DNA of 29,513 bases, from the IMG/VR virus record IMGVR_UViG_2563366805_000003, one strand, 5' to 3'. Origin of the DNA: a virus (lineage: Duplodnaviria; Heunggongvirae; Uroviricota; Caudoviricetes). A program made the translations under genes and the position numbers. Every line of letters begins with the position of its first letter. Position 1 is the stretch's first letter. The notes under the pieces were generated by a model that was given only the letters and a program-made list of their open reading frames with translations, was not told the DNA's origin and made no database searches. Below, piece after piece: positions 140 to 27,272 of the stretch.

Positions 140-193
140 TGCAGAAATAACGAGCAAATGGCATCATTCCTGCTTTTGTCAGGGAGATCCACC

Positions 194-748
194 ATGCTTA
201 TTGGCTATGTACGCGTATCAACAAATGACCAGAACACCGATCTACAACGTAATGCGTTGAACTGTGTAGGATGTGAACTGATTTTTGAAGACAAGATAAG
301 CGGTACGAAGTCCGAAAGGCCCGGACTGAAAAAACTGCTCAGGACATTATCGGCAGGTGACACTCTGGTTGTCTGGAAGCTGGACAGGTTAGGGCGCAGT
401 ATGCGGCATCTTGTTACGCTGATAGAAGAGTTGCGCCAGCGTGGCGTGAATTTCCGAAGCCTGACTGACAGTATTGATACCAGTACCCCAATGGGCCGTT
501 TCTTTTTTCATGTCATGGGTGCCCTGGCTGAAATGGAACGAGAACTGATTGTTGAACGAACAAAAGCTGGACTGGAAGCTGCTCGCGCACAGGGACGAAT
601 TGGTGGACGTCGTCCCAAACTTACACCAGAACAATGGGCGCAGGCCGGGCGATTAATTGCATCAGGCGTTCCTCGCCAGAAGGTGGCGATCATCTATGAT
701 GTTGGTATATCGACACTGTATAAGAAGTTTCCGGTCGGAGATAAATGA
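194..748 (+). CDS. pin: serine recombinase, Hin/Gin/Pin-type DNA invertase
   Basis: MLIGYVRVSTNDQNTDLQ... with the catalytic Ser motif, GRFFFHVMGALAEMERELI, and a C-terminal HTH (GRIGGRRPKLT...STLYKK), typical of Pin/Gin/Hin. Start taken at the internal ATG at 194 rather than the ORF-track start at 158. Confidence 0.9.
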   Translation: MLIGYVRVSTNDQNTDLQRNALNCVGCELIFEDKISGTKSERPGLKKLLRTLSAGDTLVVWKLDRLGRSMRHLVTLIEELRQRGVNFRSLTDSIDTSTPMGRFFFHVMGALAEMERELIVERTKAGLEAARAQGRIGGRRPKLTPEQWAQAGRLIASGVPRQKVAIIYDVGISTLYKKFPVGDK

Positions 749-808: not shown

Positions 809-1537
<729 letters not shown>

Positions 1538-1597
1538 TTACCCAGCAATAGTGGACACGCGGCTAAGTGAGTAAACTCTCAGTCAGAGGTGACTCAC

Positions 1598-1897
1598 ATG
1601 ACAAAAACAGTATCAACCAGTAAAAAACCCCGTAAACAGCATTCGCCTGAATTTCGCAGTGAAGCCCTGAAGCTTGCTGAACGCATCGGTGTTACTGCCG
1701 CAGCCCGTGAACTCAGCCTGTATGAATCACAGCTCTACAACTGGCGCAGTAAACAGCAAAATCAGCAGACGTCTTCTGAACGTGAACTGGAGATGTCTAC
1801 CGAGATTGCACGTCTCAAACGCCAGCTGGCAGAACGGGATGAAGAGCTGGCTATCCTCCAAAAGGCCGCGACATACTTCGCGAAGCGCCTGAAATGA
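1598..1897 (+). CDS. insE: IS3 OrfA (transposase N-terminal HTH/leucine-zipper protein)
   Basis: [40 protein letters not shown]... matches the recalled IS3 InsE sequence. The ORF-track start at 1589 is GTG; the ATG at 1598 is used here. Confidence 0.85.
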
Positions 1898-2760
1898 AGT
1901 ATGTCTTTATTGAAAAACATCAGGCTGAGTTCAGCATCAAAGCAATGTGCCGCGTGCTCCGGGTGGCCCGCAGCGGCTGGTATACGTGGTGTCAGCGGCG
2001 GACAAGGATAAGCACGCGTCAGCAGTTCCGCCAACACTGCGACAGCGTTGTCCTCGCGGCTTTTACCCGGTCAAGACAGCGTTACGGTGCCCCACGCCTG
2101 ACGGATGAACTGCGTGCTCAGGGTTACCCCTTTAACGTAAAAACCGTGGCGGCAAGCCTGCGCCGTCAGGGACTGAGGGCAAAGGCCTCCCGGAAGTTCA
2201 GCCCGGTCAGCTACCGCGCACACGGCCTGCCTGTGTCAGAAAATCTGTTGGAGCAGGATTTTTACGCCAGTGGCCCGAACCAGAAGTGGGCAGGAGACAT
2301 CACGTACTTACGTACAGATGAAGGCTGGCTGTATCTGGCAGTGGTCATTGACCTGTGGTCACGTGCCGTTATTGGCTGGTCAATGTCGCCACGCATGACG
2401 GCGCAACTGGCCTGCGATGCCCTGCAGATGGCGCTGTGGCGGCGTAAGAGGCCCCGGAACGTTATCGTTCACACGGACCGTGGAGGCCAGTACTGTTCAG
2501 CAGATTATCAGGCGCAACTGAAGCGGCATAATCTGCGTGGAAGTATGAGCGCAAAAGGTTGCTGCTACGATAATGCCTGCGTGGAAAGCTTCTTTCATTC
2601 GCTGAAAGTGGAATGTATCCATGGAGAACACTTTATCAGCCGGGAAATAATGCGGGCAACGGTGTTTAATTATATCGAATGTGATTACAATCGGTGGCGG
2701 CGGCACAGTTGGTGTGGCGGCCTCAGTCCGGAACAATTTGAAAACAAGAACCTCGCTTAG
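1894..2760 (+). CDS. insF: IS3 OrfB transposase catalytic (DDE) domain; expressed as an OrfAB fusion by -1 frameshift in IS3-family elements
   Basis: [32 protein letters not shown]... with DDE integrase-fold motifs ([27 protein letters not shown]). The ATG overlaps the orfA stop (ATGA). Confidence 0.9.
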
Positions 2761-3016
2761 GCCTGTGTCCATATTACGTGGGTAGGATCAACATACCAGC
2801 CAAGGTGTTCATTACTCCAGAAGGAAACTCAGTAATATCCATTTTGCAATATCTATGAATTATTTGTGAGACGTATATTAATGAACATTGCAAGGGCTCA
2901 CAACTAGTAGTGTTGAGAAATCCATCGGGAAAATGAGGCTAACCCTTTGAATTTACATAGCGCAAAAAGATACCTTTCCTCATAATGTGAGCTAATTTTA
3001 TGTTTCGTTTGATGAT

Positions 3017-3068: not shown

Positions 3069-3346
3069 TGGCTGGTGAACTTCCGATAGTGCGAGTATTG
3101 AATGATTTCCAACTGTTATCGATTTTGCGTATTTTTTGCATGAGAGGATTTTTACCTCCTCCCACCGATCCTCCATGGCTTTACGCCAGTGTCTCTGGTC
3201 TGCTATGTGCCAAAAGTAGACATTGCTGACATAAAATATATGATTTGACCAACTACAACCGAAGAATAGTCCAATACATCTTGGGTCTACATCCAACTAG
3301 TTATAGAATCCCGAGTATACATGTTAGTTTTGGACATTCTAATCAC

Positions 3347-3766
3347 ATGAAATATTGCTACCTGATAATTTTAAGCTTGACTATTTCTTCTGCTCAGGCT
3401 GAGACATTTCCCGCCAAGCTAACCTGTAATACGGGTGAACAAATTACTCTTAAAGTTACTGGTCCAGAGCAGCGACTGATCTACACTTCTTCACTCTATG
3501 GAACATTCCATGGATATCTCGATGTATTTAAAGGGTTATCACCTGAGCGTCAATATGAGGTACTTGCCAATATTCATGGAATAGCTCGATATAGGGACAG
3601 CCCGTTACATTTTACTCTCCTAATGAAACGAACCAATGGTGAGATGGATAATGGCTCAATTATCTATCGATATACCTACCTGAAAGACGAGCAACTGATT
3701 GATGAAGAAGGACATTGCAGTCCGATAAAAGATGGCGGATTTATTGAGGGGAGCAAAAGTTACTAA
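3347..3766 (+). CDS. hypothetical secreted protein with N-terminal signal peptide
   Basis: MKYCYLIILSLTISSAQA-ETF is a classic Sec signal with an AQA cleavage motif. Strongly AT-rich. Start at the internal Met of ORF 3245-3766. Confidence 0.55.
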   Translation: MKYCYLIILSLTISSAQAETFPAKLTCNTGEQITLKVTGPEQRLIYTSSLYGTFHGYLDVFKGLSPERQYEVLANIHGIARYRDSPLHFTLLMKRTNGEMDNGSIIYRYTYLKDEQLIDEEGHCSPIKDGGFIEGSKSY

Positions 3767-4081
3767 GGCCAAGCGTATAGTTATCGGTATGCTTACCGTT
3801 TGCAGACCCCACGGCGCTCAGGCAGCCCGCTCCGTGCCAATAGCAGGCATTACTATGGTCTGTTCCGTAACAGTCATTTTTACCAAAGTATATGGTTAGA
3901 ACTATGCCGAAAATGCCCTCATACCATAATTAGAACTAACAATTAATTTTTTAAATTAAAATAGTTTAAAGAGTCATTTTTAATCACTTATTTATCGTGC
4001 TTATAGCTCGAAAGATACACCTTATCATCATCCCCTGTTACAATGTAGGGAGTAGGTCAATAAGATTAGAAGGAGATTTAA

Positions 4082-5548
4082 GTGAAAAAAATCAGTGACG
4101 AACAAATTAATATCGAGGCTCAATCAGGATATAGACCATGGACTATAGATTCTGGTATCGGATTGCTTCCCTTTTCAGAATTAGGTGATCGAGAATTTGA
4201 GTTGCTATGTTATTTGTTAGTAAAGAACGAAATTGAAGATGGAAAGCATAAAAATATATCCTCAATATCTTTAATGCAAGGAGTTTCTGAAAGAGGACGC
4301 GACTGCGTGCTATACCATAACGGTGTTGTAAGTGGTTTAATACAATGTAAAAAAATGCAAGGTAGAATAACTAGACCGCAAGCATTAAGAGAAATAATTA
4401 AATTTTTATTGTTTTCCATTATTGATAATAGTTTGCTTCCCGCTCCTGATTGTTTCGAATATAAGTTGTATGTATCAAATGACATCGCTGAAACTACAAA
4501 CTCACTAATTCATTCTTACTCAACCGAAGTTGAGGTGGAAATAAAGTCTGATACTATCAGTAAGTATATAAAAGATGTTGTATCTGAATACGAGTCATTC
4601 AAAATTTTTGAAAACAGCCTACCAATTAGTAAAGTTATTGATCTTTTGAGACGGATAAATGTAACCGCATCAAATGCAACAGATTTAACCTTGCGAGTTC
4701 ATAAGTATGATTCATTGTTATCATTGTTTTTTAATGTAAAAACTGTAATCGACTTAGAATCTGCAGATAAAGTTATACGTAACGCGCTTGATGACTATGG
4801 TTTAAAATACTTGACCGATGAAGACTTAAAACAACTTCAAATTCGCATTTCAAATACTAAAGAAGAAAATCGAATAAATTTAGGTTTTGTGGATTTCTTT
4901 GGTTATAACAAAGAGTTTTTTAAATCCTTGAAAGGCGAGCCATTTAAACAAGTGATAGAAGCGGTTGCGTCGGTAACATTATCATTAGATAAGTATTTAA
5001 TGGAATTCATAAATAGTAAAATCAATGAGCTAGTTTTTGAAAACGTCACAATAAAATTATTAAATCCAGGGAGGATTCACCCTTTCAGTGTGGGCGTGGT
5101 GGCACCTTACCTATTTCAGAGACTGTCCATTAAAGTCGTCTCAAGAAAGTTGCCAACAGAGTTAGTCACCAAATTTTATGAACAAGCATCTCTGTCCAAA
5201 AAGGAATTAATCGACTCGATAGCAATACAGCTCTTTGAAACAAGCGAAAGAGTTATGAAAGGAGATTTCAGTCAGTTAGTGGGAAATCCAGAAGACATAC
5301 AGTTTAAAAAGAGAATATTCACTCATATACATAATGGATTCAACAGTATAGAAGATGCAAAAACTACTTTTTCTCGAGACATCCAGATTATAATGCCAAC
5401 ATTAGATTTTATAGAAGAAAAAATAGGTGAGCTATTACAAGAAGAGCGTACTGTGGTAATAAAAGACGCCTCTTTTTTGGATAATGATGATGAGATTAAG
5501 AAAATAGCAAAAACGCTGAGTATGATCGAACCCAATCCAGGCGCATAG
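4082..5548 (+). CDS. hypothetical protein, N-terminal Mrr-like (PD-(D/E)xK) restriction-endonuclease catalytic motif plus about 380-aa C-terminal region of unknown function
   Basis: 488-aa ORF with GTG start and AGGAGA RBS 5-10 nt upstream. Residues about 70-95 read ERGRDCVLYHNGVVSGLIQCKK, matching the D...(Q/E)xK pattern of Mrr-type nucleases. Very AT-rich compared with its neighbours. Confidence 0.7.
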   Translation: MKKISDEQINIEAQSGYRPWTIDSGIGLLPFSELGDREFELLCYLLVKNEIEDGKHKNISSISLMQGVSERGRDCVLYHNGVVSGLIQCKKMQGRITRPQALREIIKFLLFSIIDNSLLPAPDCFEYKLYVSNDIAETTNSLIHSYSTEVEVEIKSDTISKYIKDVVSEYESFKIFENSLPISKVIDLLRRINVTASNATDLTLRVHKYDSLLSLFFNVKTVIDLESADKVIRNALDDYGLKYLTDEDLKQLQIRISNTKEENRINLGFVDFFGYNKEFFKSLKGEPFKQVIEAVASVTLSLDKYLMEFINSKINELVFENVTIKLLNPGRIHPFSVGVVAPYLFQRLSIKVVSRKLPTELVTKFYEQASLSKKELIDSIAIQLFETSERVMKGDFSQLVGNPEDIQFKKRIFTHIHNGFNSIEDAKTTFSRDIQIIMPTLDFIEEKIGELLQEERTVVIKDASFLDNDDEIKKIAKTLSMIEPNPGA

Positions 5549-5941
5549 AATAACTGTAGTTTTGGTATTTTTATTTTTAGTAGCTGTGTTAGTGTAATTG
5601 CACTAACACACTCCTTGAGCTGCTCCCCGTTGCTTAGGACACTTCAATGTTAGTCATGAAGTAGTGAACTTCCGCTCATCGCTCATAACAGACATAAACT
5701 TCAGTTATGGCATAAAGGTATGCATGCTGGGTGGGGAAAGTATGAAGGAAAAGAAGACTGCTGCGCCGTTTGTCGTCACGTTTATCTTCATTGGCTATGC
5801 AAGTCGTAATACAAGGTGGGACAAAACTGAGACACATAAGGCCTCGCAATGGCTTGCAAGGCTTTACATGTTTTGATGTGGTGGGACGTGTGAGCGCAGT
5901 GTTGATGGGGTAATGCTTTGAATTAGAAGTGGATTCTTATA

Positions 5942-5987
5942 ATTCGTAATGCGAAGGTCGTAGGTTCGACTCCTATTATCGGCACCA
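5942..5987 (+). tRNA. tRNA-Thr 3' fragment (46 nt, anticodon loop to CCA); att-site remnant, not an intact tRNA
   Basis: ATTCGTAATGCGAAGGTCGTAGGTTCGACTCCTATTATCGGCACCA matches the recalled 3' part of enterobacterial tRNA-Thr(CGU) (thrW type). The preceding 30 nt do not form the acceptor or D arm. Confidence 0.75.
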
Positions 5988-6004
5988 TTCAAACATCTCC
6001 CCAA

Positions 6005-6088
6005 GTCTACTAAAGTCTTTCAAAACCCCTTATAATCCGCGTATTAAAGCCCCGTTCGTCTTTTGACGTCTACTAAAGTCCCTCAAAA
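6005..6088. repeat. two direct repeats GTCTACTAAAGTC(Y)(Y)TCAAAA upstream of int; possible integrase arm-type sites
   Basis: Copies at 6005-6025 and 6068-6088, between the tRNA fragment and the int start. Confidence 0.35.
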
Positions 6089-6152
6089 TCTACGGTCAGA
6101 TGGGGGTACTTATGGGGGTATTTGCTGTTCGGTTTAGTGGAGGTACCCCCAA

Positions 6153-7367
6153 GTGAAACTCAATGCCCGTCAAATAGACACAGCCAAGCCAAAAGAGAAG
6201 GCTTACAAGCTGGCCGATGGTGGCGGTTTGTATCTCTTGGTAAAACCTAATGGAGGTAAATACTGGCGACTTAAATATCGTGTAGCTGGTAAAGAGAAGC
6301 TATTGGCACTAGGTGTGTATCCTGAGGTTACTCTAGCCGATGCTCGGGCAAAACGTGAAGATGCGAAAAGAGGTATCGCTGGTGGTATCGATCCGATGGA
6401 AGCGAAACGAGAGGAAAAGATTGCCCGGGAAACGCAGTTAAACAACACCTTCAAAGATATTGCCCTTGAGTGGCACAGCAGCAAATTAAAAAAATGGTCT
6501 GCTGGTTATGCTTCAGACATCCTCGAAGCCTTCAACAAAGATGTGTTCCCTTACATTGGCAAAAAACCAATCGCCGAAATCAAACCACTTGAACTTCTGA
6601 ATGTGCTGCGGCGCATCGAGGGGCGCGGTGCTACAGAAAAAGCCAAAAAAGTGAGGCAGCGGTGCGGGGAAGTTTTCCGCTATGCAATAGTCACTGGTCG
6701 CGCAGAGTATAACCCTGCACCAGACCTTACTAGCGCGATGCAAGGCCATGAATCTAATCATTACCCTTTCCTTACAGCCAAAGAATTACCTGATTTTTTC
6801 AAGGCATTGTCCAGTTACTCAGGAAGCGCATTGGTTGTTATGGCGGCTCGTCTACTGATTATCACCGGCTTGCGAACTGGCGAACTACGTGGCGCATTAT
6901 GGGATGAAATTGATTTCAACAAGGCTATATGGGAGATACCCGCTTCACGTATGAAAATGCGGCGGCCTCATATTGTGCCATTGTCTGAGCAGGCTCTTTC
7001 GCTTATTGGGAAGATTAGAGAAATAACAGGCAATTACCCTCTTATGTTTCCCGGGCGCAATGATCCAAGGAAAACAATGAGTGAGGCCAGCATAAACCAA
7101 GTGTTTAAGCGCATTGGCTACGCTGGACGTGTAACTGGTCATGGGTTCCGACACACTATGAGCACGATTTTGCATGAGCAGGGCTATAACACCGCGTGGA
7201 TAGAAACGCAGCTCGCTCACGTTGATAAGAACTCAATTCGTGGCACATACAACCATGCGCAATATCTGGATGGAAGGCGGGAGATGCTTCAATGGTATGC
7301 CGACTATATGGATTCTCTCGAGCATGGCGGAAATGTGGTGCATATGGTGTTTGAAAAACACGCATGA
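6153..7367 (+). CDS. int: tyrosine site-specific integrase, P4-like family
   Basis: GTG start with GGAGGT RBS. The N-terminus MKLNARQIDTAKPKEKAYKLADGGGLYLLVKPNGGKYWRLKYR is typical of P4-type integrases. C-terminal catalytic region contains HGFRHT and AHVDKN...RGTYNHAQY. Confidence 0.9.
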   Translation: MKLNARQIDTAKPKEKAYKLADGGGLYLLVKPNGGKYWRLKYRVAGKEKLLALGVYPEVTLADARAKREDAKRGIAGGIDPMEAKREEKIARETQLNNTFKDIALEWHSSKLKKWSAGYASDILEAFNKDVFPYIGKKPIAEIKPLELLNVLRRIEGRGATEKAKKVRQRCGEVFRYAIVTGRAEYNPAPDLTSAMQGHESNHYPFLTAKELPDFFKALSSYSGSALVVMAARLLIITGLRTGELRGALWDEIDFNKAIWEIPASRMKMRRPHIVPLSEQALSLIGKIREITGNYPLMFPGRNDPRKTMSEASINQVFKRIGYAGRVTGHGFRHTMSTILHEQGYNTAWIETQLAHVDKNSIRGTYNHAQYLDGRREMLQWYADYMDSLEHGGNVVHMVFEKHA

Positions 7368-12124: not shown

Positions 12125-12488
12125 AAATGCAGAAATGGCGCTTAGCTCCGCAATCGGAGAGCAGGTGGCAAAGATTGCTGGTGCTGTGTGGATTCATAAC
12201 CTTCATTCTACTGGTGAAGAGAAAATGGCAATTCAGACGCCAGAGGGACGCACCATTACTACATCTCTGAAGCCGTCAGATGTTTGTGATCTGATTTGCG
12301 CATTCATGTACCCAGCAATGAGGACTGTCCACGGCGATAAGTGGAAACTTGCGACAACCGCTGAATTTGATATGTGGCTAAACAATGATGGCATGCTGAC
12401 TGATTACGGAATAACCAAGTGGCAGATGCTGGTTAGCCATATCGCAAACGCTATAGACCACGTGGGGTACGGTGATGCGAAACATTGA
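12117..12488 (+). CDS. hypothetical protein
   Basis: 123-aa ORF overlapping the previous and next genes. Confidence 0.5.
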   Translation: MRENAEMALSSAIGEQVAKIAGAVWIHNLHSTGEEKMAIQTPEGRTITTSLKPSDVCDLICAFMYPAMRTVHGDKWKLATTAEFDMWLNNDGMLTDYGITKWQMLVSHIANAIDHVGYGDAKH

Positions 12489-15231
12489 TCTTATCCGTCA
12501 GGTTATCAGTGCGTCTGAAAACAACTGGCCTCATGTGCTGGGCTGCCTGAACATAAATGTCCCTGACTCTCCGCGCCGTCATGCTCCCTGCCCTGCATGT
12601 GGGGGCAAAGATCGATTCCGGTTCGATGACAACGGGCGCGGTAGCTTCATCTGTAATCAGTGCGGCGCTGGTGATGGGCTGGATTTAATTAAACGCGTAA
12701 ATAACTGCGACACAACAGAGGCGGCGCTTCTTGCCGCTGATGTTCTGGGTATTGATTACCGGACAACGGAAACACCAGAAGCCACCAGCCAGAAACGGGA
12801 ACAACTGGAAACCGAGCGCCAGCGACGCGAACAGGAGCGCCTGAAAAGGGCAGAGAAGGACGAACAACAAAGACGGGATACGTTTTCCCGTCAGTTTGAT
12901 GACATGCGCAGAAAGGCTGTAAACGGCAAATCTGATTATCTGGTTGCGAAAGGGGTAGGTGATTTTACATTCCCCGTGTTGCCCGATGGATCTCTGTTGC
13001 TGGCGCTGGTGGATAAATCCGGCGCAGTAACAGCAGCACAGACTATTACCTCACATGGTGAAAAAAGACTCCTGACAGGTTCAGCAAAGCGAGGGGCATA
13101 TCACGCCATAAACGCACCAGAAACAACACAGAGCATCTTAATCGCAGAAGGGCTGGCAACGGCATTATCTGCCCATTTAATGCGTCCAGAGGCGCTGACA
13201 GTGGCGGCGATTGATGCCGGGAACCTGTTATATGTCGCCCAGGTACTGCGGGATAAATTTCCTTCAGCACAAATCATCATTGCTGCGGATAACGACCACA
13301 GCGAAGGAAGACAAAACACGGGGAGAATAGCAGCAGAAAAAGCAGCTTTATCTGTTTCTGGATGGGTGGCATTACCCCCGACAGATCACAAAGCAGACTG
13401 GAATGATTACCACCAAAAACACGGCATTAAATGCGCCACAGAAGCGTTCAATAAGTCAATGTACCAACCACAGGGTAATGGCGTGAAACAGGAGCCACAG
13501 ACCATTGAGGGAAGCGATTTTAAGGTTATGGATACCGATCCACTGAAACCAAGAATAGAAAGCCGCGAGGATGGTATTTATTGGGTATCTCCGAGAGCTG
13601 ACAGCCAGAGTGGAGAAATCATCAATAACGAAAGCTGGTTATGTTCTCCGTTAAGCGTTATCGGTACTGGCAGAGACGATAAAGACCAGTATCTCATTCT
13701 TCGCTGGCTGTCGTTTGGTTCTGAAACGCCGACAACCGCTGCCATTCCACTGGCTGATATTGGTGAACGTGAAGGATGGCGCACACTTAAAGCTGGTGGG
13801 GTAAATGTCACGACCAAAAGCAGCCTCAGAGCAATACTGGCAGACTGGCTACAACGCAGTGGCTCTCGTGAATTGTGGCGTGTTGCTCATGCCACTGGCT
13901 GGCAATGCGGAGCGTACATCATGCCTGATGGGGAAATCATCGGAACACCTGAAAATCCTGTGCTGTTCAGCGGGAGAAGCTCAGCCGCAGCCGGATATAC
14001 CGTCTCAGGGAGCGCGAAAAGCTGGCGTGATAACGTGGCGCGTCTGGCCTTTGGTAACTATTCAATGATGACCGGGATCGGCGCAGCACTGGCAGCGCCA
14101 TTGATTGGGCTGGTGGGCGCTGACGGGTTCGGCATTCATTTCTATGAGCAGTCGAGCGCAGGTAAGACCACCACGGCAAACGTGGCGAGCAGCTTATACG
14201 GCAACCCTGATTTACTGCGGCTGACGTGGTACGGAACCGCGCTGGGGCTGGCAAATGAGGCCGCCGCCCACAATGACGGACTAATGCCGCTTGATGAAGT
14301 TGGTCAGGGCGCTGATCCTGTCAGCGTTTCACAGTCTGCCTATGCGTTATTTAACGGTGTAGGGAAACTGCAAGGCGCTAAAGATGGTGGAAACCGGGAT
14401 CTAAAACGCTGGCGTACAGTGGCAATCAGCACCGGAGAAATGGATTTAGAAACATTTATCGCTACTTCCGGGCGAAAAACCAAAGCCGGGCAACTGGTGC
14501 GACTGCTGAATATTCCGTTGAGTAAAGCAGTACGCTTTCACGATTACCAGAACGGAAAACAGCACGCAGACGCACTGAAAGACGCTTACCAGCATCACCA
14601 CGGCGCGTCCGGGCGTGAGTGGATTAAATGGCTGGCAGACCACCAGCAACAGGCTATTAAAACCGTTCGTGATTGCGAAAGCAGATGGAGAAGCCTGATC
14701 CCATCCGATTATGGTGAGCAGGTTCACCGTGTAGCCGCGCGATTTGCCATTCTGGAGGCCGCATTGTTGTTAGGCGAGGTTGTAACAGGCTGGGATGCTC
14801 AGACATGCCGTGATGCGATACAGCACAGCTATAACGCATGGTTGCGCGAGTTCGGCACAGGTAACAAAGAGCATCAGCAGATTATTGAACAAACGGAGGC
14901 ATTTCTTAATGCCTATGGGCTTAGCCGTTTTGCACCATTTCCATACAGCCCGGCAGATTTGCCCATCAAAGATTTAGCCGGATACCGTCAGCGTGGAGAA
15001 CATGACGAAAGCCCAATGATTTTCTACACATTCCCGGCCACATTTGAAAAGGAGATCGCATGTGGTTTCAACGCAAAACAGTTTGCTGAAGTGTTGAAAA
15101 AAGCCGGGATGCTAACCCCACCAAACAGCGGTCGTGGATACCAAAGAAAATCACCACGTATTCAGGGACGACAAATAAACGTTTATGTACTCAATTACCA
15201 GCCAGGAGATTATAACTCATCTGAAGAATGA
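12472..15231 (+). CDS. primase-helicase (phage P4 alpha-like): zinc-binding primase N-terminus plus P-loop NTPase/helicase C-terminus
   Basis: 919 aa. Zinc finger CPACGGKDRFRFDD...FICNQCGAGDGLDLI is typical of P4 alpha / PICI Pri-Rep primases. Walker A-like GIHFYEQSSAGKTT further on. Iterons follow the stop immediately. Confidence 0.85.
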   Translation: MMRNIDLIRQVISASENNWPHVLGCLNINVPDSPRRHAPCPACGGKDRFRFDDNGRGSFICNQCGAGDGLDLIKRVNNCDTTEAALLAADVLGIDYRTTETPEATSQKREQLETERQRREQERLKRAEKDEQQRRDTFSRQFDDMRRKAVNGKSDYLVAKGVGDFTFPVLPDGSLLLALVDKSGAVTAAQTITSHGEKRLLTGSAKRGAYHAINAPETTQSILIAEGLATALSAHLMRPEALTVAAIDAGNLLYVAQVLRDKFPSAQIIIAADNDHSEGRQNTGRIAAEKAALSVSGWVALPPTDHKADWNDYHQKHGIKCATEAFNKSMYQPQGNGVKQEPQTIEGSDFKVMDTDPLKPRIESREDGIYWVSPRADSQSGEIINNESWLCSPLSVIGTGRDDKDQYLILRWLSFGSETPTTAAIPLADIGEREGWRTLKAGGVNVTTKSSLRAILADWLQRSGSRELWRVAHATGWQCGAYIMPDGEIIGTPENPVLFSGRSSAAAGYTVSGSAKSWRDNVARLAFGNYSMMTGIGAALAAPLIGLVGADGFGIHFYEQSSAGKTTTANVASSLYGNPDLLRLTWYGTALGLANEAAAHNDGLMPLDEVGQGADPVSVSQSAYALFNGVGKLQGAKDGGNRDLKRWRTVAISTGEMDLETFIATSGRKTKAGQLVRLLNIPLSKAVRFHDYQNGKQHADALKDAYQHHHGASGREWIKWLADHQQQAIKTVRDCESRWRSLIPSDYGEQVHRVAARFAILEAALLLGEVVTGWDAQTCRDAIQHSYNAWLREFGTGNKEHQQIIEQTEAFLNAYGLSRFAPFPYSPADLPIKDLAGYRQRGEHDESPMIFYTFPATFEKEIACGFNAKQFAEVLKKAGMLTPPNSGRGYQRKSPRIQGRQINVYVLNYQPGDYNSSEE

Positions 15232-15993: not shown

Positions 15994-16455
15994 ATGGAAC
16001 TAAAATTTATTGATAACCCTGTGCGATTACAGGCCTTTCTTAACGAGCCAGGCAATACCGAAAATATTGTTGAGCCGGGGCACACGTACTACATCAAGCC
16101 TGATGCGGTATATCTCGGCATCTACGAAGGATTAGTGCTGGCTGGCGTTCATGAAGTGCGTAACTTCTGGCATAGCGTTGTTGAATGCCATGCGGTGTAC
16201 GACCCCGGATTCCGTGGTGAATATGCACTGCAAGGACATCGATTATTCTGCAAATGGCTTCTCGAAAACTCACCATTCCTTAACAGCATCACTATGGTTC
16301 CTGACACCACGAAATACGGACGGGCAATTATCCGTTTGCTTGGCGCTACCCGTGTTGGTCACCTTGATGATGCTTATATCAGATGTGGTAAACCCGTCGG
16401 CGTAACGCTTTATCAGTTAACTCGGCAACAATATAAGGAATTCAGCGAATGTTAA
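15994..16455 (+). CDS. hypothetical phage-like protein; first gene of the putative ejection-protein cassette
   Basis: 153-aa ORF overlapping the start of the next gene. Confidence 0.5.
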   Translation: MELKFIDNPVRLQAFLNEPGNTENIVEPGHTYYIKPDAVYLGIYEGLVLAGVHEVRNFWHSVVECHAVYDPGFRGEYALQGHRLFCKWLLENSPFLNSITMVPDTTKYGRAIIRLLGATRVGHLDDAYIRCGKPVGVTLYQLTRQQYKEFSEC

Positions 16456-17126
16456 TTACCCATATAGCTCATAAACATCTCAATCGTGCCGTATACGAAA
16501 AAGGCGGTGATGGTGGTGCCTCTAAAGCTCAGGCGAAGGCCCAGCAGCAGGCAATTGATTTGCAGCGCGAGCAGTGGAATACTGTGATGAATAATCTCAA
16601 GCCGTATGCAGAAGTCGGATTGCCTGCTTTACAACAACTGCAAGGACTGATGACTCTGGAAGGGCAGAATAAAGCCGCGAATGATTTCTTTGGTTCTGGT
16701 TTATATAAAACACAGGCAGATCAGGCCCGTTATCAGAACCTTGTCTCAGCAGAAGCTACCGGGGGGCTTGGCTCAACAGCTACCAGTAACCAGTTATCTT
16801 CCATTGCGCCCATGCTTTATAACAATTGGCTTAGTGGGCAAATGCAAAATTATGGAAACCTGCTAAATGTCGGGATGAATGCGGCATCAGGGCAGGCAAC
16901 AGCAGGGCAAAACTACGCCAATAATACCGGGCAACTCTTGCAGGGGCTTGGCGCTATTCGTGCAGGTCAGGCGCAGCAGCCATCCAGTCTTGCGCGTGGT
17001 ATTGGTGGGGCGGCATCAGGCGCTTTAGCGGGTGCGCAACTTGGTTCCGTTGTTCCGGGTATAGGTAATGTCGCCGGGGCTATTGGTGGTGGGCTTATTG
17101 GTCTTGTTGGGGGGCTTGGATTCTAA
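16449..17126 (+). CDS. putative DNA-ejection / internal virion protein, small (gp7-like by size and position), Gly-rich hydrophobic C-terminus
   Basis: 225 aa. C-terminus GAASGALAGAQLGSVVPGIGNVAGAIGGGLIGLVGGLGF is a glycine-zipper-like segment. Stop overlaps the next ATG. Confidence 0.45.
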   Translation: MLITHIAHKHLNRAVYEKGGDGGASKAQAKAQQQAIDLQREQWNTVMNNLKPYAEVGLPALQQLQGLMTLEGQNKAANDFFGSGLYKTQADQARYQNLVSAEATGGLGSTATSNQLSSIAPMLYNNWLSGQMQNYGNLLNVGMNAASGQATAGQNYANNTGQLLQGLGAIRAGQAQQPSSLARGIGGAASGALAGAQLGSVVPGIGNVAGAIGGGLIGLVGGLGF

Positions 17127-18445
17127 TGGCGACATGGCAACTTGGCGGGCTGCCTAGCATGGCACCGCAAAATGATAATGCTCCTCGTTCTTCCGTTCCT
17201 CAGCCTGTGCAGTATCAGCAGCAGCCAAACGTAGGTTTAATGGCGCTACAGGGGCTAAGAGGCGTTGCTGAGATTAATCAGCAGGCGCAAATTTCCCAGC
17301 AGCTAAAAGAATATCAGGCACGGTTGGGTAGTGCGGTAGCTAATAATGATCGTGTTGGCGTGCAGAAGTTAATGGCCCAGTATCCCCAGTTTATGGCTGA
17401 TTCTCAAAAACAGATGGGATTCATTGATGCTGAGCAAAATCGGCAGACCGCTGACGCTGCCATGAATCTGCGTCTTGCGTCACAAACTGGAGATCCACTG
17501 ACCATGCAGAAGGCCATTCAGCAGGCAAATCCAGTATTACAGCGATTTGGTCTTCCTGCTGAAGAGGTTTATCAGTCTTGGCAGAATGACCCACAGGAAT
17601 TCAACAGAATCACTGACCTCATCCACCTCCATGCTGATCCAAATAGTTACTTTAGTGTTCAAGAGAAGCAGCAAGGGCAGAGTATTGCACAGCAGAACGC
17701 AGATACATCTGCATATAATGCTCAGGTTAATGCGGAGCAGGGTAATCGGCGTCTCGATATGGAGCAGTTCAAAGTCATATCCGATAACCAACTACGCACG
17801 AGAGAAATGGTTCTGAAAGCACGACTTGGACGTGCTCAAAATGACATCGAGAGAGACAAGCTCAATGCTGAACTGAGCAAGGTACAGCAGGCGAAAGTGG
17901 AGAAGATGAACGATAAAATTAATACTGTTGCAGGTAATATCGACTCCTTGAACTCTGCGCTTGAAGTGGGTCATGAACTGGCGGGAATTGTAGGGAAACA
18001 TCCTTCGGCCGTTACCCGTTCGCAGAACTATAACCCCCTGACGCTGGGGTTTGGATTCCTCCCTGATGTAGCAGAAGACACACGAAGCCTACGCGCCAAA
18101 GCTGATGAATACAACCTAAAGGTTATTCTGCCTAGCCTAAAAGGTACTTTTGGCTCTAACCCAACCGAAGGGGAAAGGGCTGCCCTTATGCAATCTCAAA
18201 ATGGCATTAAGTCAGCAACCAGCAATGAGGCATTTTTGCGAGAGTTGAATAAAGCGCAGGACGTAATTATTCGAATGCAGAAACGACAGATTGCCGGGCT
18301 CGGTATTCCTGTAACCAAATCTAAGGACGAAGAAACTGATACCAAAATGCTGTTGCAGGATCCTTCACTGGTTAAGGATTATGTGACCGCACATGGCTAT
18401 CTGCCGGAAAGTTACTATCAGGCAAAACTTAAGGGATGGCAATGA
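17126..18445 (+). CDS. putative DNA-ejection / internal virion protein, middle (gp20-like by size), Gln-rich
   Basis: 439 aa, Q-rich with coiled-coil-like stretches. Translationally coupled on both sides. Confidence 0.45.
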   Translation: MATWQLGGLPSMAPQNDNAPRSSVPQPVQYQQQPNVGLMALQGLRGVAEINQQAQISQQLKEYQARLGSAVANNDRVGVQKLMAQYPQFMADSQKQMGFIDAEQNRQTADAAMNLRLASQTGDPLTMQKAIQQANPVLQRFGLPAEEVYQSWQNDPQEFNRITDLIHLHADPNSYFSVQEKQQGQSIAQQNADTSAYNAQVNAEQGNRRLDMEQFKVISDNQLRTREMVLKARLGRAQNDIERDKLNAELSKVQQAKVEKMNDKINTVAGNIDSLNSALEVGHELAGIVGKHPSAVTRSQNYNPLTLGFGFLPDVAEDTRSLRAKADEYNLKVILPSLKGTFGSNPTEGERAALMQSQNGIKSATSNEAFLRELNKAQDVIIRMQKRQIAGLGIPVTKSKDEETDTKMLLQDPSLVKDYVTAHGYLPESYYQAKLKGWQ

Positions 18446-21162
18446 TGGCACAACTGACAGAAAAACAGAAAGCCTATTCCCGTCATCTCGATGAAAAATA
18501 TGGTTTCCCATCAGGGACGATGGAAACATTAGTTGGCAATGAATCTAGTGGTAACGGAAGTGCCGAGTCACCGAAAGGAGCTAGAGGATTTGCTCAACTG
18601 ATGCCCTCAGTAATGAGTGATGCTGGTTATCGTGGAACAGATCCGCGCTCACTGCCATTTGAAAAGCAAATGGATATCGCAGCAAACCATCTCAATAAAG
18701 GAATGAAGCGATTTGGTGATATAGGTATGGCATTGGCTGGGTATAATTCTGGCTATGCTCGTATTAATGCCGTAAGAAACGGTAAATCTACACTGCCAGA
18801 TGAAACGGCTAATTACGTAAGTAAATTTGCAGATGCCGGAATAATCCCTGATGACAGTGAAATCTTGCAGTTTGCACAAACCAGTCAACATCGCAATCTT
18901 CAGCAGCCTGACTACTCAGAGCTTGATAAAGAAATCTCTCAGGTGGGAGATATTTCTGCATGGGAAGCAAAACGTCAGCAATTTAAGAACATAGAAGCAG
19001 GACTACCAACAGCCAGTTCATGGGAGCAGAAAAGAGCTCAGTTTCTCGCCGATGAAAATGCCGGGGAACCGCAGCAGCAAGTAGCCAAGTCTAACCTTAA
19101 TCCTGAGATGGAATATCTTTCGCCAGGACTGAAAGCTGCGCCAGAGCAGATGGCCAGAGGGATTGCTAATATACCGTTTGATGTAATGGACGCAGGCGTG
19201 GGGGTAGTCAATGCGGCGCAATCAGCCGGAGCATGGGCAGCTCAGAAGCTTGGTGTGGGTGATGGCACATACACGCCCATATCACCTGTCTTTCGCCCAG
19301 TAGACCAACCTACAGATCCATACGCGCAGGCTGGTGAGCAGCTAGCACCTTACCTTATTACAGGATTAGGTGCAGGAAAGGCAGCTACCGCAGCTTCTTC
19401 AGTTGCCAACGCTCCACGTGCTGAACGTGCGGCCACAAAGGTGGCTAGTATGTTGGCAGAAAACCTGCCAGGTACATTGGTGAACGCCCAAAAGAACGGG
19501 CAGATCAGCCCAGAAGACCTAGCAAAAGAGACAGGTATTGGCCTAGCAGGATCGCTAGGAGCACGCGCTTTAATAAAGAGCGGACAGACAGCCAGTGACG
19601 TAATGCGAGATGTATTGCGGAGTAATACAAATCAATCAGGCCATGTGTTAGGGGCAGCAAATACTCTGGAAACCGCCAATGATGTATCGAAAGCAGCGCG
19701 TTCTGCCGTAGGCCGAGAGCATATCGCATCGCAGGCATCAAACGTCAGAGATGATGTCGCTAAGGCGGCGAAAATCACTGGTATTAATATCAACACCCTG
19801 ACGCCTGGAATGCGCTCAGGTAGTCGTGGAATTGCCCAAGCAGAAGGTGTTCTGGCATCAACTCCTGGGAATGTTCAGGATGCTCACCTTACGGCCTTCA
19901 ATGAAATATCCTCAAAGTTGAATAAGCAGTTGTCTGATTTCGGTGCTGAGTCTGGAAGCGCATCAGAAAAAAGCGCAGCAATTAAAGAGCGCATCATCGC
20001 GAGCCTCAGTGATATGAAAACAGCAGAGAATATGGCATGGGCAGAACTGCGAAGCACGATGCCACGCGAAAGGATGAAAATGAGTAATGGGATGGCTGTC
20101 GTCCAAGCAGAAAAAGCAGCCAATGTTCCACTCAGCCCGGAGATGAAACAGTTTCAGGCTGCCAACAACCAAGGTGGCGGCATAACCTTCGACGGGATGA
20201 AGGCATGGCGTGCTAAGTTTGCTGATGCTGAACAAGCAAACACCCGGGCAGGTAAGGCCAATGCCGCCCGGATTGCCGGAGAAATGCGCAGAGCTATCAC
20301 TGATGACATGCGCATCATGGCTGAAAAAGGAAACTTCCTCACAGAATGGCAGAAAGCTAACGATCTCTCTAAAAGTTACATTATCGCCAAACAAAATGCC
20401 GAATCTGTTTTTGGTCGAGATCTCGCATCAGACGCTATGGTAAGAAAAGGTGCCGATACGCTTAAGGCATCCGCAAACACTGGAACTGGAGCTTTTCACC
20501 GTCTTATCTCCGCGCTGCCGGAAGCAGAACGCCAACCAGCAATAGCATCTATTCTTCAGCATGCTGTGGCGCAGGGAGAGAAGGGAGGAATCGGTGAAGA
20601 GTCTGGTATCCAGTATTTTGCCAAGCTCATGACCCAGCAGAATGTAAACGCCATCAGTCGTCATGCGCCAGATCTCGGTAGAATGATGAAAGAGTTCGGT
20701 GTACTCGCTAAAGCCAGCACCAGACCGCAGCGATACGTAGAGCGCACGGGAAGAACAACTGAGGCTCTCAAAACGCTCGATTCAGGCCTTCCAAAGATCG
20801 TCGGCGTGATTATGAACGGAGTTCAACAGTCAGGTGCGATCGCTGGAGGCTTTGGCGGTGGTGTAATTGGTTCGATTAGTGGTTTGGTTGCTGGTGGCGC
20901 GCTGAGAAATACTGTGGCTAAGATTGGGGCGACAAGAAGTGGTAGGTATGCGATAGAGAAAGCCGTTCAGGAAGCTACAAAAGCAGTGCGCGCAGGGGCA
21001 TCACCAGCAGCGATCGCCGCAGCAGAGAAACGATTTTCGGCCAATAAAATTGCCATGAAAGCAATTCGTGATGCCGTTGGGGCTGAAGAATTCGTGAAAC
21101 TGACAAGGGCCGGGATTGTAGCTACCCTCAGTGGCATGAAAGATGTTAGCGAATGGGAATAG
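18436..21162 (+). CDS. large virion-associated protein with N-terminal lytic transglycosylase (SLT) domain
   Basis: 908 aa. SLT signature GNESSGNGSAESPKGARGFAQLMPSV ... LAGYNSGYARINAV (ES / GLMQ-like / YN-G motifs). Long alpha-rich C-terminus with a Gly-rich segment GAIAGGFGGGVIGSISGLVAGGAL. Confidence 0.7.
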   Translation: MAMMAQLTEKQKAYSRHLDEKYGFPSGTMETLVGNESSGNGSAESPKGARGFAQLMPSVMSDAGYRGTDPRSLPFEKQMDIAANHLNKGMKRFGDIGMALAGYNSGYARINAVRNGKSTLPDETANYVSKFADAGIIPDDSEILQFAQTSQHRNLQQPDYSELDKEISQVGDISAWEAKRQQFKNIEAGLPTASSWEQKRAQFLADENAGEPQQQVAKSNLNPEMEYLSPGLKAAPEQMARGIANIPFDVMDAGVGVVNAAQSAGAWAAQKLGVGDGTYTPISPVFRPVDQPTDPYAQAGEQLAPYLITGLGAGKAATAASSVANAPRAERAATKVASMLAENLPGTLVNAQKNGQISPEDLAKETGIGLAGSLGARALIKSGQTASDVMRDVLRSNTNQSGHVLGAANTLETANDVSKAARSAVGREHIASQASNVRDDVAKAAKITGININTLTPGMRSGSRGIAQAEGVLASTPGNVQDAHLTAFNEISSKLNKQLSDFGAESGSASEKSAAIKERIIASLSDMKTAENMAWAELRSTMPRERMKMSNGMAVVQAEKAANVPLSPEMKQFQAANNQGGGITFDGMKAWRAKFADAEQANTRAGKANAARIAGEMRRAITDDMRIMAEKGNFLTEWQKANDLSKSYIIAKQNAESVFGRDLASDAMVRKGADTLKASANTGTGAFHRLISALPEAERQPAIASILQHAVAQGEKGGIGEESGIQYFAKLMTQQNVNAISRHAPDLGRMMKEFGVLAKASTRPQRYVERTGRTTEALKTLDSGLPKIVGVIMNGVQQSGAIAGGFGGGVIGSISGLVAGGALRNTVAKIGATRSGRYAIEKAVQEATKAVRAGASPAAIAAAEKRFSANKIAMKAIRDAVGAEEFVKLTRAGIVATLSGMKDVSEWE

Positions 21163-26674: not shown

Positions 26675-27272
26675 GGCTGGCTGATTCCTTATTGTGGGAT
26701 AGCACTATCATACAATAAGTGGGTTAAAGGGAGAGCGTTACCGCCTGATATGCTGTATGAATAACAACCAAATTTCAGGGGCGGAAAAAGATATGGGGGT
26801 ACTTTTGGGGGTATCTATAAAAAATGAACAATAAAAAAGGCAACAAAAACAAAGCTTATCGCCTATGTGTATTGTTCCTATTATCGCACCATTAAAATCA
26901 AATTGTTACGTAAGATCTTATCATTCTCCCACCAAAAAATTATCTTAATGTAACAGCTGGTGTAAGTAAATTCTATCAACGAAGATCAATCTTATCTACT
27001 GACCAAAAAGGCCTGATAGGGCTTCGCTCACTATACATCCTTGGCTGCAGGTTTAGTTGTACACCACTCCTAAATTTAATGTGTTGGCAATGTGTTCAAT
27101 AAAGCTCGAACAAATTAGCTCATTATGATCGGTTAATACTTCAACTTCTGGTTGCATGATTGTTTGTCCGTAAAAAGATAACGCGCCTGCCGGGTAGTAG
27201 CAGGCGCATTACGCAATAGGTAAACAAGGGAGGAAGTTCAGAAATGTAAATCGGGAAGGTTGTACGCAATGT

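Follow-up and report, generated by a model that had tools for sequence, protein, structure and literature searches.

The gene at positions 4082–5548 of the window (the whole 29,513-nt stretch of DNA that was analysed) encodes a two-domain protein whose N-terminal domain is, according to a structural model, a PD-(D/E)xK nuclease fold with a conserved active site, and whose C-terminal domain (CTD) is specific to its own family. In eight contexts the gene or its homologues are carried on mobile elements, frequently with known defence genes close by. We estimate a probability of roughly 0.5 that this prophage accessory gene (“moron”) encodes a self-contained immune nuclease directed against phages or other mobile genetic elements (MGEs), with the CTD controlling its activation. 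The original prediction had seen in it a candidate single-gene defence nuclease, and the fold, the invariant catalytic motif and the solo status of the gene support that reading, with the defence role itself being putative.

The open reading frame starts with a GTG codon, which is credible because this residue is also the first one in homologues from other genera, and its product is identical to RefSeq WP_000723924.1, which is annotated as “hypothetical protein” and was not found in the searchable literature. Several features predicted for the gene were recovered: its ribosome binding site is indeed good (AAGGAG), it is clearly AT-rich (33.4% GC and 28.8% GC3 vs 47.8% GC for the rest of the window), its stop codon lies 402 nt before the tRNA fragment that begins at 5951, where about 400 bp had been given, and no methyltransferase ORF adjoins it in the window. 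The sliding window of lowest GC (1467 nt, 561 windows) starts at 3901 and overlaps most of the ORF. A pattern scan for promoters and terminators gave no convincing sites for the gene, and no sigma-70 consensus promoter in the 315-bp spacer upstream of it. A perfect 9-bp hairpin (GTGTTAGTG-taattg-CACTAACAC) is located at 5587–5610, 39 nt past the stop codon; it is not a canonical intrinsic terminator because no T-run follows it. Rfam and tandem-repeat scans of positions 3200–6200 revealed no ncRNA and no repeat array flanking the gene.

Table. Positions of the nuclease gene, its domains and its surroundings in the window
Feature	Position	Strand	Basis or remark
pinE invertase gene	158..748		
GIY-YIG gene, PD-T4-3 homologue	809..1522	-	PADLOC E 3.5e-127
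IS3-family insertion, 1257 bp	1534..2790		comparison with strains D2 and ECONIH4
orfA of the IS3-family insertion	1589..1897		
orfB of the IS3-family insertion	1894..2760		
139-aa ORF	3347..3766	+	WP_001333214.1; GC 40%
Shine-Dalgarno sequence AAGGAG, 6 nt before GTG	4070..4075	+	read from sequence
Complete ORF, 488 aa plus stop codon, predicted stand-alone nuclease	4082..5548	+	identical to RefSeq WP_000723924.1
PD-(D/E)xK nuclease core, residues 1–135	4082..4486	+	
Codon E40, invariant acidic residue, first core helix, DRxFE motif	4199..4201	+	invariant in both alignments
Codon D74, predicted metal-binding Asp, RGRDC motif	4301..4303	+	invariant; directly before strand 75–79
Codons Q88-C89-K90, (E/Q)xK half of the catalytic motif	4343..4351	+	invariant; end of strand 82–90
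Helical extension of the nuclease domain, residues 136–235, with invariant F216-F217	4487..4786	+	pLDDT, LmuA profile
Low-confidence interdomain linker, residues 236–245	4787..4816	+	pLDDT <50
Family-specific, mostly helical CTD, residues 246–488	4817..5545	+	
3' tRNA fragment, 37 nt, att core, right end of the nuclease-carrying prophage	5951..5987	+	unique 37-mer
P4-type integrase gene of the ~21-kb element	6153..7367		
DUF927/Toprim primase gene of the ~21-kb element	12472..15231		
P22-like ejection proteins gp7 and gp20 plus transglycosylase, ~21-kb element	16449..21162		

The PD-(D/E)xK fold that a predicted structure was expected to contain is present. In the AlphaFold2 model of the 488-aa protein (mean pLDDT 85.3), the alpha-beta-beta-beta-alpha-beta core of this superfamily is formed within residues 1–135 by helix 36–52, strands 61–65, 75–79 and 82–90, helix 98–114 and strand 126–131, and the acidic residues and the (D/E/Q)xK motif on strands 2 and 3 are represented by E40, D74, Q88 and K90. 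Beyond this core, the model remains at a pLDDT of 90–95 up to about residue 210 before it falls to 85 and then to 55 by residue 230. This helical extension is covered in part by the PADLOC LmuA profile (PDLC03852), which matches the protein at residues 36–181 with an E-value of 0.0036, and the nuclease module is therefore about 235 rather than about 100 aa long. Accordingly, the roughly 380-aa region that had been described as unassignable has to be cut back: only about 245 aa (246–488) are left of it once residues ~136–235 are counted with the nuclease. The same profile matches 40 of 47 family members (best E 2.1e-9), and the top Foldseek matches in the PDB are LmuA chains. The match table of the N-terminal domain lists Mrr-like AF1548 (10.2), LlaBIII (8.9), AspBHI (8.5), VC1899 and FokI (8.4 each), MspJI (8.3), Cdn1 (7.8), Cap4 and Can2 (7.5 each), Card1 (7.4) and LmuA (6.8); HamA and SduA are likewise among the matches.

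At the level of sequence, the protein had no significant match in Pfam, NCBIfam or PHROGs, and searches of PDB sequences with the protein, the whole-family profile and the profile of the N-terminal domain reached no nuclease and no LmuA. The Pfam 2CompART hit (E 0.042) was dismissed since it is below threshold and falls in the helical region, and the PADLOC hits to WYL (E 0.0038; 5 of 47 members) and to Csn2 and Cas5d (one member each) were set aside as helical-region noise. The sole PDB sequence match below 0.01, weak but obtained repeatedly with the family profiles, was a “putative monooxygenase” (3mcs; E 0.002–0.007) at residues ~157–229, corresponding to window positions 4550–4770; monooxygenase domains are listed among the effector types of LmuA (bioRxiv 10.1101/2025.06.23.660979).

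A search of 5.8 billion proteins yielded 120 homologue clusters, nearly all of 483–491 aa and aligned over their full length. The family ranges over Gamma-, Beta- and Alphaproteobacteria as well as Bacteroidota, with named members from Pectobacterium, Pantoea, Stutzerimonas, Vibrio, Enterobacter, Kluyvera, Citrobacter, Cronobacter, Acinetobacter, Burkholderia, Pseudomonas, Marinifilum and Flavobacteriales. The whole-family alignment comprises 47 members of 32–84% identity, and a wider alignment of the N-terminal domain (21 sequences) adds relatives of 21–32% identity. D36, R37, F39, E40, R71-G72-R73-D74-C75, Q88-C89-K90, E104 and K107 are, among others, invariant in all 47 members, and F39, E40, R73, D74, Q88, C89 and K90 stay invariant when the more distant relatives are included. 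The D...(Q/E)xK pattern recognised at about residues 70–95 thus corresponds to RGRDC (71–75) and QCK (88–90), and since these residues are invariant across the 47 members and down to 21% identity, it is not a chance match. Searched against the same 5.8-billion-protein set, the profile of the N-terminal domain retrieved only fragments of this family and gave no bridge to LmuA, Cap4 or Mrr. The profile search for Mrr_cat (PF04471) that had been suggested divided the family: the window protein itself had no match at E <= 10, whereas 9 of its 47 relatives did (best E 5.7e-6), and distant members reached 16.6–17.8 bits against a gathering cut-off of 21.

In a distant subclade of 16–23% identity (P0183, P0206, P0219, P0231; L020:6001–7458), D74 and the QxK residues are replaced, and the full two-domain architecture is retained. 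The gene of one of these proteins, P0219, is flanked by prfC-like and WecG-like genes and has no genes of mobile elements in its vicinity, a chromosomal context which suggests that the protein is an exapted, catalytically dead paralogue. Because the subclade keeps the architecture without the catalytic residues, the scaffold of the family may have a non-nucleolytic role.

The CTD is joined to the nuclease by a low-confidence linker, and the pTM of the whole protein is only 0.48 though both halves are modelled confidently; the arrangement of the two domains is therefore not fixed. Modelled alone, residues 240–488 reach a pLDDT of 85 and a pTM of 0.75 and are predicted to fold into a bundle of long helices that is preceded by a small beta hairpin. 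Conserved motifs in this domain include LTDxDL, LGFVDFFGY, PYLxxR, GDYS and RTVVIKD. The CTD model had no specific match in the PDB and none to SAVED or CARF domains, it resembles no known sensor or oligomerisation domain, and the domain contains no transmembrane segment and is slightly acidic (median pI 6.1). An exhaustive search of 1.84 billion representatives (50% identity) with a CTD HMM found 122 proteins, nearly all of 470–500 aa with the domain at ~240–485. As nearly all of them share the nuclease-CTD architecture, the CTD is hardly ever combined with any other domain.

The window is E. coli DNA, and the layout of the locus was derived from alignment with E. coli strains D2 and ECONIH4 and from their annotation. 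A prophage whose baseplate and tail genes are Mu-like ends with the nuclease gene: its tail-fibre genes are followed by the pinE invertase gene, a minus-strand GIY-YIG gene, an ORF of 139 aa, the nuclease gene and finally the att fragment. This att fragment is the 3' part of a tRNA gene, which we take to be E. coli thrW; ARAGORN detected no complete tRNA, and the window contains the 37-mer once, whereas 0 copies would be expected by chance alone. Homology to ECONIH4 ends at 5997 and picks up again at 26876, the site of a second, degenerate copy of att (TCCTATTATCG-CACCA, 26876–26892), and positions 5998–26875 therefore represent a separate integrated element of about 21 kb, flanked on its left by an att-like repeat (CTCCTATTATCGGCACCA, 5970–5987). 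The tRNA fragment thus marks a junction between integrated elements, and the nuclease gene belongs to the left-hand prophage, at an accessory position adjoining its attachment site. In gene makeup, the ~21-kb element is an odd satellite/P22 hybrid (see Table), and a 22-nt repeat, ATGGGGGTACTT(A/T)TGGGGGTAT, is present just inside both of its ends (6100 and 26793).

The GIY-YIG gene is a homologue of PD-T4-3, and in E. coli the nuclease gene lies about 1.2 kb from this defence gene. PD-T4-3 comes from a functional selection for E. coli anti-phage systems, in which it was reportedly validated experimentally. In comparison with D2 and ECONIH4, the 5' end of the homologue in the window has been removed by the IS3-family insertion. 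The 139-aa ORF is always found upstream of the nuclease gene in the E. coli prophage and is missing from the other contexts; neither Pfam nor PADLOC returned a match to it, PHROGs gave just a weak one (phrog_24265, E 0.006, function not known), and it may be a local accessory factor.

The nuclease gene occurs as a solo gene in eight independent mobile-element contexts from several phyla. Besides the end of the E. coli prophage near the PD-T4-3 homologue, these are an integrase island in Stutzerimonas, an island in Acinetobacter where a PAAR gene and umuDC flank the gene, the end of a P2-like prophage in Pseudomonas, a degraded P2-like prophage in Enterobacter in which a type I-A retron and an Old-like gene are no more than 8 kb away, a site adjoining an integrase fragment in Burkholderia, a metagenomic prophage in which the gene directly follows the integrase, and the transfer region of a conjugative plasmid in Agrobacterium. 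When all ORFs located up to 4 kb to either side of the gene were compared with one another by BLASTP in seven contexts, integrases and S24 peptidases were the only genes to recur. No SMC-like LmuB or LmuC was found within ±4 to 8 kb in the eight contexts and no conserved methyltransferase in any of them, and neither a HerA/FtsK-like gene nor a CD-NTase (cyclase) was called in the contexts examined. The proposed single-gene status therefore held up, with no conserved partner in eight contexts. In Enterobacter, the retron (RT plus PtuA-like ATPase) and the Old-like ATPase/TOPRIM gene (L013:254–3488 and L013:14828–16567) form a small defence cluster together with the nuclease homologue.

Among 5426 complete E. 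coli genomes, 30 carry the nuclease gene at an identity of at least 99.5%. The gene is intact in 26 of the 31 E. coli copies and disrupted in five (ECONIH5, PD7, B1S11, ETEC1738 and 1297KP), either by IS5 or IS1 or by a one-base frameshift which splits the annotation; these disruptions may reflect a fitness cost. A tblastn search of 50,697 phage genomes gave no match to the gene, and because of this absence the picture of a prophage moron rests on prophage annotations. Two plasmid records carry the gene or a homologue. One is the conjugative Agrobacterium plasmid with a 25%-identical homologue. The other, NZ_CP081745.1 (E. coli CX15, 18,368 bp, annotated as a non-mobilizable plasmid), carries the nuclease gene with its flanks, and the same locus is also present on the CX15 chromosome; this record may represent a piece of the prophage that was excised or duplicated, or else an artefact of assembly.

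Nucleases of the Mrr/Cap4/LmuA type cut DNA only when two nuclease domains come together. In the mechanism that we favour, the N-terminal ~235 residues would constitute a Mg-dependent PD-(D/E)xK DNase of this type with E40, D74, Q88 and K90 as catalytic residues, and the helical CTD on its flexible linker would keep this nuclease inactive. Upon sensing of an infection cue, which could be a protein of the phage or DNA of abnormal structure, the CTD would change its conformation or oligomerise and thereby pair the nuclease domains, so that DNA would be degraded and the infection halted either directly or by cell killing. The proposed silence until such a cue follows what is established for related nucleases, of which LmuA and the Cap4/DUF4297 type are described below, and the part played by the CTD in activation is likewise assigned by analogy. 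More specifically, and with somewhat less confidence, we suggest that the protein could be the founding member of a new family of stand-alone immune nucleases, which would be LmuA/Cap4-like and free of an SMC, HerA or cyclic-nucleotide partner, and in which the ~245-aa CTD would serve as the protein’s own sensor and oligomerisation switch and recognise a phage-derived cue directly.

Other functions have been considered for the same set of observations. The protein might be a type IV restriction endonuclease, in which an Mrr-like nuclease cuts phage DNA with modified bases and the CTD acts as a new reader of modified DNA, resulting in direct, non-abortive immunity. The solo status, the matches to MspJI, AspBHI and Mrr and the precedent of the END nucleases are in line with this, but the CTD is acidic and unrecognisable, and we regard such an activity as rather unlikely. 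Still a little less probable is that the nuclease serves its mobile element in another way, through exclusion or degradation of competing plasmids or MGEs, as an addiction-type toxin or in the element’s own DNA metabolism. This would fit the restriction of the gene to mobile elements, including integrase islands and the conjugative transfer region in Agrobacterium, and the finding that the related Lamassu/DdmABC acts on plasmids in addition to phages (bioRxiv 10.1101/2025.06.23.660979). However, the gene has neither a conserved antitoxin-like partner nor an adjacent ncRNA or repeat array, it is found at accessory positions outside of replication and recombination modules, and its absence from sequenced phage genomes argues against a core phage function.

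The five interrupted copies raise the question whether the gene is a decaying or silenced passenger without current function in E. coli. Very low-GC genes are expected to be silenced by H-NS, and the upstream spacer without a sigma-70 consensus would agree with a silent gene. On the other hand, the full-length frame and the catalytic residues have been kept over the whole divergence of the 47 sequences (32–84%) from many genera, most E. coli copies are intact and the RBS is strong, which makes a mere passenger quite improbable. Least probable, at a very small chance, is an orphan Lamassu effector (LmuA) that relies on LmuB and LmuC encoded elsewhere in the genome. Although the LmuA profile matches most members of the family and LmuA chains head the Foldseek list, no SMC-like or LmuC gene is located nearby in the eight contexts, the CTD is about 100 aa longer than LmuA CTDs and has no detectable similarity to them, and its profile retrieves a single architecture only.

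If the gene does provide defence, a compact one-gene system of about 1.5 kb would be added to the repertoire of E. coli prophage defences, and the family would show, as a natural experiment, by what means nucleases of the LmuA/Cap4 type can be controlled when their usual partners are missing. As the CTD has no structural or sequence relatives outside of the family, to find what binds or triggers it could uncover a new sensing module. Moreover, this small family, whose genes are carried on mobile elements, bears on the competition between prophages and plasmids. Should its function turn out to be ordinary, the protein would be one more accessory nuclease of a well-known fold.

Compared with known systems, the protein differs from classical members of the Mrr family and the modification-dependent endonucleases (Mrr_cat, AF1548, MspJI, AspBHI) mainly in its domain order. 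Mrr consists of a winged-helix Mrr_N followed by a C-terminal catalytic domain, whereas in the window protein the nuclease is N-terminal (1–135), the remainder is helical and no Mrr_N winged helix or SRA-like reader was found, in agreement with the earlier remark that an N-terminal motif is unlike classical Mrr. Type IV modification-dependent enzymes possess a recognisable modified-base reader or DNA-binding domain, which was not found here either. Cap4 of CBASS has a SAVED domain and a CD-NTase neighbour, both of which are absent, and HerA-DUF4297 (Gao_Her_DUF) has an adjacent HerA gene, which is missing here, as is a match to Pfam DUF4297. Among single-protein sensor-nucleases, those of Shedu (SduA, DUF4263) and END (PLD) belong to other nuclease subfamilies, and their domain order and sensor domains are unrelated to those of the window protein. 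Among the profiles of PADLOC-DB 2.0, which covers the PD-T4, PD-T7 and PD-lambda series, none matched the protein over its full length.

LmuA (Lamassu; DdmA of Vibrio cholerae DdmABC; PDB 9nxx, 9hr5, 9uxh and 9hqx) is among the closest systems. Both proteins begin with a PD-(D/E)xK nuclease that is extended by helices (~230 aa) and connected through a flexible linker, around residues 235–260, to a helical CTD, and the homology of the effector domain is reflected in the 40 of 47 profile matches, weak as the match of the window protein itself is (E 0.0036); neither the whole-family profile nor that of the N-terminal domain reaches a solved LmuA sequence. The CTD of LmuA is a bundle of five to six helices, which binds LmuB/LmuC and mediates tetramerisation, while that of the window protein (~245 aa) shows no detectable structural or sequence similarity to it. 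As both an LmuA-type CTD and the lmuB operon (SMC-like ATPase, with or without lmuC) are absent, the latter from all eight contexts, the protein is not a Lamassu member. Within the Lamassu complex LmuA is monomeric and inactive, and it becomes active when its CTD tetramerises and the linker (234–259) is rearranged (bioRxiv 10.1101/2025.06.23.660979; PMC12663957), and Cap4/DUF4297-type nuclease domains carry variable CTDs which control activation (bioRxiv 10.1101/2024.10.24.620088). The window protein probably shares the logic of LmuA, that is, a nuclease which is silent as a monomer and active once its CTD drives oligomerisation. Overall, the protein falls outside Lamassu, CBASS, HerA-DUF4297 and classical Mrr, and in its way of working it would by analogy come closest to LmuA or Cap4, as an effector nuclease under the control of its C-terminal domain. 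Familiar are the nuclease fold and the general logic of a single-protein sensor-nuclease; what is new is the regulatory C-terminal domain.
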